Positions 5,536 to 9,676 of a DNA stretch of 34,573 nucleotides are shown piece after piece. The notes beneath the pieces are model-generated. The model made no database searches. It was given only the letters and a program-made list of their open reading frames with translations, and was not told the DNA's origin. Source of the DNA: an uncultured Candidatus Saccharibacteria bacterium (GTDB lineage: Bacteria; Patescibacteriota; Minisyncoccia; Phycocordibacterales; UBA5272); the NCBI GenBank assembly GCA_964391935.1, contig CAYMOA010000001.1, positions 7,860 to 42,432 on the forward strand, given 5' to 3'. Position 1 is the first letter of the stretch; every line of letters begins with the position of its first letter. The position numbers and the translations under genes were made by a program.

Positions 5536-5564
5536 TTGCATGTAATATTAGCATATGCTAATAT
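5536..5564 (+). promoter_or_regulatory. arsR promoter with embedded perfect 20-bp palindromic operator
   Basis: TTGCAT (5536-5541), 17-nt spacer, TAATAT (5559-5564), then 6 nt to the ATG at 5571. ATATTAGCAT|ATGCTAATAT (5545-5564) is a perfect palindrome that spans the spacer and the -10. Confidence 0.6.
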
Positions 5565-7117: not shown

Positions 7118-7150
7118 AACCATAAAAAGTTTGGTCGAATTTTTATGGTT
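7118..7150. terminator. bidirectional hairpin between convergent genes
   Basis: aaccataaaaa (7118-7128) pairs with tttttatggtt (7140-7150). The 11-bp stem has A/T runs on both sides and overlaps the stop of the minus-strand gene. Confidence 0.5.
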
Positions 7151-7943
7151 TTATAACTGTATCCTCCCACTCGAATTTCTGACCTTTAAAATATGAATCT
7201 ATAAATGGTACAAGTAAACTTGCAAGTGGTAACGCAAAAAAGAAAGCAGGTTTAAAACTTGAAAAGATATAAAGTAGAATTGTAATAAAAACTAAAGATA
7301 AAGAAAAAATAAGTCTGCCTATTGTTGTGTCAGGTGTAGTTTTTGGATCGGTAATCATAAAGAAAGAGAAAAGGATTATCGGCACACTCAACAAATGGTG
7401 AAAGATATTTCCACTAAAAAGGTTTACGTATGAAAAAAGCAAAACGGTAAAAGAATATGGAATTAAAAAGAATAGGGCTACGTCGGTCCTCTTTACACTA
7501 TAACTGATCAATAAACCACAAGCTAAAACAAACAAAGCCAACATGCTCGAGTCAAAACCCCATTGATACGGTGTCACCGCAGCAAGCCCTGGAAAAGCCA
7601 AAATAGTCATAACTATACCAAAGTTGTTTGGATTAAAAATATGTTTATTGTTGTATCGAACAATGAATTTACTTGCCACAGTTACAAAAGTACAAAATAT
7701 AGCAGCTTGTAAACTCTGAGTGCTCATCAAAATGATAATCGGCATACCGGCAACGAAAGAACTTTTCCAGTTATATGGTATCTTTGCGAACCAAGAAAAG
7801 TAAACTTGGAACAGTTGCATAAAAACGAAAATAGTTACGATATACCAAAGTTGTATTTGTGGAAGTTTTAAGACAAAAGTCGCCATCAATAAAACCACAA
7901 CTAGAAATGCCATTTGAAAATATATCTGATTAATGTTTTTCAT
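7143..7943 (-). CDS. polytopic membrane protein, RnfD/NqrB-like
   Basis: 266 aa with about 8 hydrophobic helices. HIFNPNNFGIV and FFMITDPKTTP resemble the conserved RnfD/NqrB segments (FNP..., FFMATDP.T.P). Confidence 0.55.
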   Translation of the reverse strand: MKNINQIYFQMAFLVVVLLMATFVLKLPQIQLWYIVTIFVFMQLFQVYFSWFAKIPYNWKSSFVAGMPIIILMSTQSLQAAIFCTFVTVASKFIVRYNNKHIFNPNNFGIVMTILAFPGLAAVTPYQWGFDSSMLALFVLACGLLISYSVKRTDVALFFLIPYSFTVLLFSYVNLFSGNIFHHLLSVPIILFSFFMITDPKTTPDTTIGRLIFSLSLVFITILLYIFSSFKPAFFFALPLASLLVPFIDSYFKGQKFEWEDTVIKP

Positions 7944-7995: not shown

Positions 7996-8676
7996 CTACT
8001 GAACAATAAAATATTGTAAATCTTTGGCTCTGTCTAATTCTTCTATGTTACCTTTCCATTCCCTATAAACAATATCCTCTTCTTTAATTTCTTGTGTATT
8101 TGTATATTTTATTTTATCTCCCAATTCTTCTAGATCACTCACATAAAATTTTTGGGTTTCATTATCTTTGTAAAAAACTTTAATTTTCTGATTTTCTAAA
8201 ATCAAAGAATAAATATTTAGGTGAGAATTGCTTTTATATGTGTCCACACTGTTTTCTTTTATATTAAATTTATAAATCACATCGTAAAAATCTGAGACAC
8301 TTCCCTCTTTAAAGCGAGACTCTAAAAAGTATAGGTGTTCAGGTGTGGTCAAAGTCAACATCTGGGCGCAATGCTCTGGGTCCCAAAAAACATTTTCGGA
8401 AACTTTTTCAAATTTGTTTTTTTCAGAAAAATTTATTTCTTCTAGTTTTTGATTAGTTGCAATATACCAAAATCTTCCAATCTCTTTTTCTTCTTTGTCT
8501 TTTTTTTCTTCTTTAAATCTATACAAATATGCTTTCCCATCTTTTGACAAAACCTCACCTTTTTCTTTTGTAAAACTTTGTCTAGTATCACCACTCATCA
8601 AGTCAGTCTTAAAATAAAAACTCAATCCTATTAAAATGAAAACACAAAATATTACAAACATTCTTTTATTGTTCAT
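7996..8676 (-). CDS. hypothetical membrane-anchored protein
   Basis: The preferred start is the ATG at 8676 (MNNKRMFVIFCVFILIGLSFYF), because TGTTATAAT (-10 at 8689-8684) lies 7 nt upstream and the track start at 8721 sits inside a terminator stem. No known domain. Confidence 0.5.
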   Translation of the reverse strand: MNNKRMFVIFCVFILIGLSFYFKTDLMSGDTRQSFTKEKGEVLSKDGKAYLYRFKEEKKDKEEKEIGRFWYIATNQKLEEINFSEKNKFEKVSENVFWDPEHCAQMLTLTTPEHLYFLESRFKEGSVSDFYDVIYKFNIKENSVDTYKSNSHLNIYSLILENQKIKVFYKDNETQKFYVSDLEELGDKIKYTNTQEIKEEDIVYREWKGNIEELDRAKDLQYFIVQ

Positions 8677-8695
8677 TCCGGTAATTATAACACTC

Positions 8696-8864
8696 AAACA
8701 AAGAAATAGACCGAGATGCAACGTGCATCTCGGTCCTGAGATTGCAGGTGTCCAGCCTTAACTCTGCTGGACAAGACCTCCTGAGAGGAGGCGAAGTGGT
8801 AGCCCTTGCTCACTCCACTTTAGGTTGACGGTCGAGTCCTGTGTCGGACACCCGTATGGCCTTG
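8696..8864 (-). ncRNA. GC-rich structured RNA candidate (unknown class), sRNA or cis-regulatory leader
   Basis: Minus-strand promoter TTGCTT (8898-8893), 16-nt spacer, TAGAAT (8876-8871). P1 is GGUGUCC/GGACACC (8852-8846 with 8753-8747). Inner helices are GGAC/GUCC, AAGUGG/CCACUU and CCUCC/GGAGG. The 12-bp terminator hairpin (8735-8709) is followed by UAUUUCUUUGUUU. My hand count gives 61 G+C in the 106-nt core, against much lower GC in the flanks. Confidence 0.5.
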
Positions 8865-8907
8865 TAGAATATTCTATCTTAAATATTTAAAAAAGCAAGA
8901 CATCGGC

Positions 8908-8936
8908 TTGCATAATATATTAGTATCTGCTAATAT
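8908..8936 (+). promoter_or_regulatory. second copy of the arsR-type promoter/operator, driving the glutaredoxin-like gene
   Basis: cttgcat + aatatattagtatctgctaatatatt aligns without gaps to 5535-5567, with 5 mismatches in the 26 nt after cttgcat. Elements are TTGCAT 8908-8913, imperfect palindrome ATATTAGTATCTGCTAATAT 8917-8936 and TAATAT 8931-8936. The ATG at 8945 is 8 nt downstream. Confidence 0.55.
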
Positions 8937-8944
8937 ATTATTAT

Positions 8945-9190
8945 ATGACAAATAACAATAAAAAAGTAATAATTTATTCGACACCTACTTGCCCGTATTG
9001 TGTTTATGCTAAACAATATTTTAAGGACAAAAAAGTCCCTTTTGAAGATGTTGATTTATTTATACACAGAGACAGAATAGAAGAAGCAAGATCAAAAAGT
9101 GGACAAAATGGTGTGCCAGTGATAGACATCAATGGTCAGATAGTTCTTGGTTTTCAGCCTGAAGTTTTTGAAAAACTTCTGAATCAATAA
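8945..9190 (+). CDS. glutaredoxin/NrdH-like thiol-disulfide oxidoreductase
   Basis: 81 aa. VIIYSTPTCPYCVYAKQYF...GVPVIDINGQIVLGF is the glutaredoxin CPYC fold signature. Confidence 0.8.
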   Translation: MTNNNKKVIIYSTPTCPYCVYAKQYFKDKKVPFEDVDLFIHRDRIEEARSKSGQNGVPVIDINGQIVLGFQPEVFEKLLNQ

Positions 9191-9676
9191 TTACTCAAAC
9201 TCGATTGGTATTTCCAAAGCATCGTCATTTTCTGGGAGACCAGATGGGTTATCTTTTTTGAGAATTATCGCACCTTTTTTAGAATAAACATTTGACTCTA
9301 GTTCATAGGAAATATTAGCTTCGAATGGAACGAACTCGTTTGTCATCCAGTCGCCTTTGGCTTGGGCCACACCAGTGCCAATTATTTTCCCATCCCAGTC
9401 AACAATAAAAATCGGGAATGATGCTTCGAAAAACCAGCTACCTCGGGCACTACCTGTAACTTTTACCGGGCTTTTTATTTTCTGATTTGGTTTCGGACTA
9501 TCTAAAATAATTTTATCACCTTTATCTTCTATGATATTTTTGATATTCTCTTGATTTATAGGATTATTATCTTTTTCTTTTGCAGGATTGATCCCTATAG
9601 AAAAAATCACACTCAAAATAGCAAGAACAAAAAATACTAGTGCAACTATAATAATTTTTTTATTTATATTTTTCAT
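9191..9676 (-). CDS. Gmad2 immunoglobulin-like domain protein, membrane anchored
   Basis: An N-terminal TM helix is followed by SPVKVTGSARGSWFFEASFPIFIVDWDGKIIG...GDWMTNEFVPFEANI, matching the Gmad2 pattern. Confidence 0.65.
   Translation of the reverse strand: MKNINKKIIIVALVFFVLAILSVIFSIGINPAKEKDNNPINQENIKNIIEDKGDKIILDSPKPNQKIKSPVKVTGSARGSWFFEASFPIFIVDWDGKIIGTGVAQAKGDWMTNEFVPFEANISYELESNVYSKKGAIILKKDNPSGLPENDDALEIPIEFE

Follow-up and report, generated by a model that had tools for sequence, protein, structure and literature searches.

A GC-rich, terminator-ended intergenic element in a Paceibacteria genome as a candidate lineage-specific small RNA

In the oxyS-oxyR and gcvB-gcvA layouts, the gene for a small RNA (sRNA) is transcribed divergently from a stress-regulated gene. 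CPR organisms are uncultured, with RNAs that evolve too quickly to be discovered by genome comparison, and to our knowledge their regulatory RNAs are almost unexplored. The element described here comes from a window (the whole stretch of DNA analysed, 34,573 nucleotides) in the genome of an uncultured member of the Paceibacteria, a CPR lineage. It resembles the two layouts in that its putative promoter stands back to back with another promoter, in one short control region that holds an operator, here of the ArsR type (8912–8941). It differs from them in its divergent partner, which is a glutaredoxin gene and not a regulator; moreover, some 60 nt separate the centre of the operator from the predicted RNA start downstream of it, and an ArsR-type repressor is not expected to act from there. 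With terminating riboswitches and attenuators the element shares a structured region and an intrinsic terminator upstream of an operon, together with a possible alternative hairpin, but it has no conserved aptamer, the hairpin is weak and uncoupled, the downstream gene has a promoter of its own after the terminator, and homologous operons do not carry the element. A third likeness is to orphan sRNA candidates from GC-IGR/DIMPL screens. In AT-rich genomes, intergenic regions that are long and GC-rich are described as enriched for structured non-coding RNAs (PMC8723152, PMC11109978). The published candidates are, like the element, GC-rich non-coding intergenic regions with stable hairpins, a terminator and an upstream -10 box, which in the element is putative; they were accepted on conservation and covariation across genomes, whereas the element has no detectable relative and so stops short of the step by which a GC-rich spacer becomes an RNA class (PMC8723152, PMC11109978).

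The element is a non-coding, GC-rich, hairpin-rich stretch of the minus strand, intergenic and about 155–165 nt in size (Table 1). The host assembly amounts to 829 kb in 80 contigs and is 72% complete, and the genomes of its family and order relatives measure 0.4–1.3 Mb. An initial annotation, made by eye from the letters of the window, had counted about 57% GC in the core (8747–8852) within a more AT-rich context. The computed value is 57.5%, against 25–27% in the flanks; it is 54% across 8700–8865 and 33.6% in the genome. Independent Logan assemblies of two sequencing runs contain the element and both of its flanks at 100% identity, which excludes an assembly chimera or artefact, and a run of a different study holds a 151-nt piece of the element. 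The DNA contigs from four runs are short and identical, with zero variants within the element, and all runs listed with the locus are DNA runs, from wastewater metagenomes. The small genomes of the relatives, the glutaredoxin homologs from Candidatus Paceibacterota and the wastewater source together point to a CPR/Patescibacteria bacterium. Within its own genome the element is present as a single copy. We rejected a mobile element as its source, given the single copy and the absence of terminal inverted repeats and target-site duplications flanking the island.

Table 1. Coordinates of the element, its flanking features and the further GC-rich islands of the host genome. Positions are those of the window unless a contig (C) is named.
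Feature	Position	Strand	Remarks
TTGCTT, proposed -35 box	8893..8898	-	3 of 6 positions match TTGACA
TAGAAT, proposed -10 box	8871..8876	-	preceded by AGA, not TGn; inside the 12-nt palindrome TAGAATATTCTA
GC-rich core, about 124 nt	8742..8865	-	from the predicted 5' end (about 8865–8863) to the linker preceding the terminator
Hairpin H1	8828..8855	-	4 + 4 bp with internal loops; pair probabilities 0.88–1.0
Hairpin H2 (AAGUGG.../...CCACUU)	8794..8820	-	apical loop GAGCAAGG; pair probabilities about 0.5–0.6
Hairpin H3 (GCCUCCU-CUC-AGGAGGU)	8776..8792	-	anti-SD-like strand pairs with SD-like strand
Hairpin H4 (UGUCCAGC-9 nt-GCUGGACA)	8749..8773	-	8 bp; pair probabilities 0.76–1.0
UGCAAUCUC, proposed anti-terminator strand	8738..8746	-	pairs with GAGAUGCA in the 5' arm of the terminator
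Intrinsic terminator	8695..8736	-	13-bp stem 8736–8708, 7 G-C pairs, 3-nt loop; -22.6 kcal/mol; U-rich tract UAUUUCUUUGUUU
TGTTATAAT, consensus extended -10 promoter of the downstream gene	8684..8692	-	7 nt upstream of the ATG (8676–8674); leaderless layout
Downstream gene, 226-aa protein	7996..8676	-	N-terminal membrane anchor; no Pfam family; heads the operon
ArsR-type operator palindrome	8912..8941	.	duplicates the arsR operator found at about 5545–5564; part of the divergent glutaredoxin promoter
Glutaredoxin-like gene, 81 aa	8945..9190	+	divergent from the element
Sibling island	C4:1933-2055	-
Sibling island	C12:9422-9568	+
Sibling island	C12:9945-10051	+
Sibling island	C14:1347-1497	-
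Sibling island	C16:1769-1883
Sibling island	C17:12797-12991	-
Sibling island	C9:24207-24367	-
Sibling island	C53:2001-2143	-
Sibling island	C30:4962-5117	-
Sibling island	C47:1546-1772	-

At the 3' end of the element, a GC-rich stem-loop on the transcribed strand is followed immediately by a U-tract, as is required of an intrinsic (Rho-independent) terminator, and the U-tract accompanies the stem in the minus-strand orientation only. The perfect 12-bp hairpin and U-rich tract reported in the initial annotation are both there, and our scan lengthens the stem to 13 bp. Across the region the scan returned four terminator-like sites, against 0.5 expected in shuffled sequences. The whole 169-nt element folds at -69.5 kcal/mol (z = -5.2 relative to shuffles), and the terminator supplies much of this. 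For the 124-nt core without the terminator the predicted gain over shuffles is modest: z is -2.4 on the minus strand, where 4 of 200 shuffles fold equally well, and -1.0 on the plus strand.

The minimum free energy (MFE) fold consists of four consecutive, independent local hairpins, H1 to H4, whose pair probabilities are mostly 0.6–1.0. Two of these, H2 and H3, correspond to the hairpins AAGTGG/CCACTT (8820–8794) and CCTCC/GGAGG (8791–8777) recognised previously. The three-way junction into which they had been placed is not borne out, since its ensemble probability is below 1%. The strands of its closing helix P1, GGTGTCC (8852–8846) and GGACACC (8753–8747), do occur, but their pairing is improbable (0.003–0.008), as is that of the second helix, P2 (GGAC/GUCC; 0.001). 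A fold constrained to form P1 is 4 kcal/mol worse than the MFE fold. P1 and P2 compete with H1 and H4, and the 3' arm of H4 contains the 3' strand of P1.

The promoter proposed earlier, TTGCTT-16-TAGAAT, can be read in the sequence with its 16-nt spacer (8898–8893 and 8876–8871), and a generic promoter scan placed it below the reporting level. The tRNA genes of this genome carry extended -10 boxes, TGnTA(T/G/A)AAT, 8–12 nt before the mature 5' end; TAGAAT is the -10 variant of five of them, but there it is preceded by TGn. By the genome's own standard the putative promoter of the element thus appears weak, and because its TAGAAT is without the TG of an extended -10 box we regard it as possible but not convincing. 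A 5-bp GC hairpin (GCAAGCCGATGTCTTGC) followed by TTTTTT, at 8895–8911, is terminator-like on the minus strand. The -35 regions of the two divergent promoters both overlap with this hairpin, which could damp down antisense transcription that reads through across the glutaredoxin gene.

The spacer between arsR and the DUF2202 gene and that between the element and the glutaredoxin gene have only about 38 nt clearly in common, namely GGCTTGCAT and the operator. A promoter architecture shared to the left of the operator was considered and set aside, as the TAGTAT/TAGAAT alignment falls in AT-rich sequence of about 48% identity and may be chance. An exact-protein look-up of the glutaredoxin returned only identical strains, and its nearest named homologs belong to Candidatus Paceibacterota MAGs. 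In the closest homologs (83%, 73% and 70% identical) the gene has divergent spacers of 64 and 49 nt or lies directly behind an ArsR-family gene, and the element is absent. On other Paceibacterota contigs, these closest homologs (L077 2037-3261; L081 2688-3249) stand beside or directly behind genes for ArsR/HTH_5 regulators, a gene order that supports a putative ArsR-glutaredoxin regulon.

The simplest reading of the locus is a small independent transcription unit, because a strong, oriented terminator shields a promoter that needs protection and because GC-rich hairpins are hard to keep by chance in a streamlined genome of 34% GC. The predicted start site is near 8864, about 7 nt past TAGAAT, and the RNA would fold co-transcriptionally into the four consecutive GC-rich hairpins. 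The transcript would end at the terminator stem (8736–8708) and its U-tract, and the terminator would at the same time shield the leaderless extended -10 promoter that serves the next gene and that begins only some 15 nt beyond. We assign a probability of roughly 45% to this proposal of a small RNA that is specific to the lineage and independently terminated; judged from its sequence it is at best a species-specific candidate outside the known families. The contrast between 57.5% GC and a genome at 33.6%, the z-scores of -5.2 overall and -2.4 for the core, the better fold of the minus strand and an equal layout elsewhere in the genome (C4:1933-2055) speak for it, whereas the promoter with its unextended -10 box and three-of-six -35 match, the modest core z-score and the want of a homolog in any collection searched speak against it. 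We infer that the weak TAGAAT promoter would fire, that the RNA would accumulate and that it would act in trans; by analogy with other orphan bacterial sRNAs, base-pairing or protein binding is the likeliest mode. The most economical guess at a role is the response to thiol or metal stress, since the element stands back to back with an ArsR-operated glutaredoxin promoter. The fuller proposal, a species-specific sRNA of Paceibacteria (CPR) that is co-induced with the ArsR-controlled glutaredoxin when thiols or metals cause stress and is one among about a dozen fast-evolving GC-rich sRNA units, we consider rather unlikely.

The main alternative, which we rate somewhat lower, is that the island has no RNA function and is a recent foreign or decayed GC-rich relic of 125 nt joined to an insulating terminator. 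The terminator would then stop stray minus-strand transcription before it reached the leaderless promoter of the next gene, with the stray transcripts coming from antisense read-through of the rpsB-tsf-Gmad2 operon across the glutaredoxin gene or from divergent promoter noise. Consistent with such a source, the Gmad2 gene, which ends at 9191, lacks a terminator of its own ahead of the glutaredoxin gene that converges on it. The weak promoter and a core that only marginally beats its shuffles also fit a relic, as does the absence of the element from all relatives and syntenic slots examined.

Homologs were sought by several routes. When 60 relatives were searched by BLASTN with the 175-nt element, no match rose above noise. 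A covariance model (R1), built from the single sequence with its four hairpins and 32 pairs, found no match in 95 genomes of the family or in 150 genomes across the order, and with lax filters no acceptable match in the four genomes of the same genus. One covariance-model match in genome G001 was discarded; it scores 12.3 bits and lies antisense within a 650-aa ORF at 37% GC. An exact-word scan of 185,579 species genomes with a 23-mer from H4 gave nothing or chance hits, a 21-base gapped pattern run against 241 million metagenome records gave only chance matches, three blocks of the element gave only a chance match among viral contigs, and BLASTN found no match in phage and plasmid collections. 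The 18-mer matched in the viral collection (L045) and the two hits of the metagenome pattern (L070, L071) fall within unrelated, mostly coding sequence and were dismissed as chance.

The reach of these searches can be gauged from a positive control. In the same BLASTN, a 176-nt piece of the host's tmRNA was recovered from 4/4 genus genomes (E 1e-9 to 1e-23) but from only 3/32 other genomes of the family, so the negative result for the element is meaningful within the genus and uninformative beyond it. The four genus genomes are 69–90% complete, with a protein identity to the host genome of only about 55%. BLASTN and the covariance model alike found the element in 0/4 of them. Absence from relatives, which the initial annotation had itself named as counting against its proposal, is therefore what was observed as far as it is testable; the stand-alone sRNA that it had put forward is still a tenable reading, but the conservation that would have gone with it was not found in the four genus genomes.

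Synteny shows a slot that varies between relatives. In one genome of the genus (G004), tRNA-Trp with a TGGTAAAAT box of its own stands behind an ortholog of the Gmad2 gene (55% identical), unrelated genes come next, and the slot holds neither glutaredoxin nor element. This tRNA-Trp(CCA) gene lies at L044 6330-6400 (G004:C3, minus strand), and synteny breaks exactly there. In relatives the corresponding slot is short, AT-rich or occupied by a tRNA, and the intergenic spacers measure only 49–84 nt. Because the element is absent from the homologous slots, we interpret it as a lineage-specific insertion between a conserved operon and the ArsR-linked glutaredoxin gene. Such a variable locus agrees with a relic, and so do two other GC-rich islands of the host genome, on C4 (about 1900–2080) and C12 (9371–9601), that were likewise not found in the four same-genus genomes. 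Against a relic, functionless sequence at 57% GC should decay towards 34% GC, which would require a very recent origin, and no donor sequence turned up in any collection. Nor would a relic account readily for four well-formed hairpins directly before a terminator, with strand-biased stability, or for some 165 extra bases, conspicuous among spacers of 49–84 nt.

An independent small RNA also fits the downstream side of the locus better than does a cis-acting leader of the operon 7996–8676 / 7143–7943, that is, a riboswitch or a protein-dependent attenuator through which a ligand sets read-through. Such a leader is improbable, even though a structured RNA with a terminator stands directly upstream of a membrane-protein operon and the terminator's 5' arm can be drawn into an alternative hairpin nearby. 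The anti-terminator strand, UGCAAUCUC, exists as proposed, but at 8746–8738 and not at 8744–8736. The hairpin that it would form has 8 bp with one bulge and reaches -7.9 kcal/mol, against -22.6 kcal/mol for the terminator, which leaves it essentially zero equilibrium probability. UGCAAUCUC lies outside H1–H4 and outside the proposed P1 and has no base in common with any upstream helix, so that no sensor is coupled to it. The mutually exclusive anti-terminator platform envisaged at the outset fails on both counts, since its alternative hairpin is weak and has no link to the helices before it.

The downstream gene, for its part, appears to be independent of any leader. The promoter box that had been noticed after the terminator is present (TGTTATAAT at 8692–8684), about 10–15 nt from the terminator end, and the gene has no Shine-Dalgarno sequence. 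This layout follows a pattern found across the genome. Counted against ORFs of >=80 aa, 95 of 397 extended -10 boxes (TGnTA[ATG]AAT) precede a start codon by 6–9 nt, and the distances peak sharply at 6 nt (50 boxes, followed by 19 at 7 nt, 16 at 8 nt and 10 at 9 nt). In addition, TG occupies -15/-14 in 44% of TAnAAT-N6-8-start sites as opposed to 7.8% of all TAnAAT. The peak in box-to-start distance and the TG enrichment together indicate that leaderless mRNAs from extended -10 promoters are the rule here, and as TGTTATAAT-N7-ATG fits this rule, the downstream gene would be a separate leaderless unit and the terminator would close a unit of its own. A read-through mRNA, by contrast, would carry a 190-nt leader devoid of a ribosome-binding signal in a genome that initiates leaderlessly.

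Homologous operons point the same way. A gene for an RnfD-like protein (7143–7943) shares the operon with 7996–8676. The 226-aa protein has only two homologs in a collection of 5.8 billion proteins (53% and 48% identical), and both head the same operon: in one case the RnfD-like and PAP2-like neighbours are both called, and in the other a 1.7-kb contig ends within the second gene. The spacers upstream of these operons are 84 and 58 nt long, AT-rich and without a covariance-model match, and hence without the element. A family-alignment search with the 226-aa protein across the genome contigs gave no confirmed relative. In an organism with the homologous operon (L067 33-1370 / L068 9-1109), the divergent upstream gene is a CDPS-SBP_bac_3 fusion, an unusual architecture that joins a cyclodipeptide synthase (CDPS) domain to a periplasmic solute-binding domain (SBP_bac_3). 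Since there is, besides, no Rfam riboswitch match even at E = 10 and no conserved aptamer, the riboswitch or attenuator of the initial annotation is disfavoured by its fold, by its weak and uncoupled anti-terminator, by the gene's own leaderless promoter and by its absence from homologous operons.

We put the chance that the element is a divergent form of a known RNA missed by Rfam (SRP RNA, 6S RNA or a CsrB-like sponge) as very slim. With Rfam 15, the whole window at gathering thresholds yields two tRNAs only, and the 361 nt at 8600–8960, searched to E = 10, give only a chance alignment to ar14 and, over the terminator, a match to a plastid 3' UTR; the earlier failure to place the element in a known family is thus upheld. 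ARAGORN calls no tRNA or tmRNA at the element. The ar14 alignment (RF02344) was rejected at 20.8 bits against a gathering threshold of 58.8 bits (E = 0.065 on 361 nt), and H3 and the terminator drive it. The alphaproteobacterial sRNA ar14 does resemble the element in having a CCUCCUC-containing hairpin and a terminal terminator hairpin, but its C-rich motif is in a loop whereas that of the element is base-paired, and the phylum differs. What recommends a divergent known RNA is that neither Bacteria_small_SRP nor 6S RNA is matched at E <= 1 in the 72% complete genome and that the element RNA contains five GGA motifs; one of the unexplained GC-rich islands could be a divergent SRP RNA. However, a housekeeping RNA would be expected throughout the genus, as tmRNA is, and the element is absent there; and in place of the long end-to-end hairpin of SRP or 6S RNA the element has four local hairpins.

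A sponge of the CsrB/RsmZ type was rejected as well, there being no cognate CsrA above the cut-off in the 72% complete genome: the best PF02599 match, within a frame of 376 aa, scores 16.6 bits where the cut-off is 27 bits. GGAC/GUCC words occur five times in the element. The octamer UCUCAGGA (minus-strand sense) occurs twice, at 8734–8741 and 8779–8786; one copy lies in the loop and 3' arm of H3, and the other immediately precedes the terminator. No cognate binding protein was identified for the recurring octamer or the GGAC words. Among the known RNAs of the assembly, a fragment of class A RNase P lies at the end of contig C60 and the 5' part of tmRNA at C1:79799-79974(-). The 16S rRNA gene at G000:C29:4245-6063 (L063 136-1954, minus strand) spans 1819 nt, against 1533 nt in the model; it has an insertion of about 290 nt, inside which lies a weak tRNA-like match (36 bits).

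A small protein is scarcely credible: no open frame spans the GC island, and although its two longest minus-strand frames, a 39-aa GTG frame (8813–8694) and a 26-aa UUG frame that begins 2 nt after a GGAGG, do exist, neither has a credible initiation signal, no start codon follows TAGAAT at the spacing of a leaderless gene, the GGAGG is tied up in the stem of H3 and too near the UUG, both frames cross the terminator stem and end after the U-tract, and the peptide is neither hydrophobic nor conserved. Taken jointly, the cis-acting leader, the divergent known RNA and the small protein are still unlikely, and we leave a slight chance to readings outside those listed here.

An independent small RNA might not be alone in this genome. 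About a dozen further GC-rich, non-ORF islands have z-scores of -4 to -8.5 and no tRNA call, and several of them end in a terminator (Table 1). None matches Rfam at E <= 0.01. The island at C4:1933-2055 repeats the layout of the element: TGTTAGAAT precedes a structured RNA and its terminator, beyond which lies the leaderless promoter of the following gene. The value of the element and its dozen or so siblings lies mainly in serving as targets for metatranscriptome mapping. If transcribed, they would constitute a first set of sRNA candidates in a mostly leaderless Paceibacteria genome. If that is true, only coding regions or proteins would be open to these sRNAs as points of action, most mRNAs here having no 5' leader, and the set would thereby raise the question of sRNA regulation of targets that have no 5' UTR.
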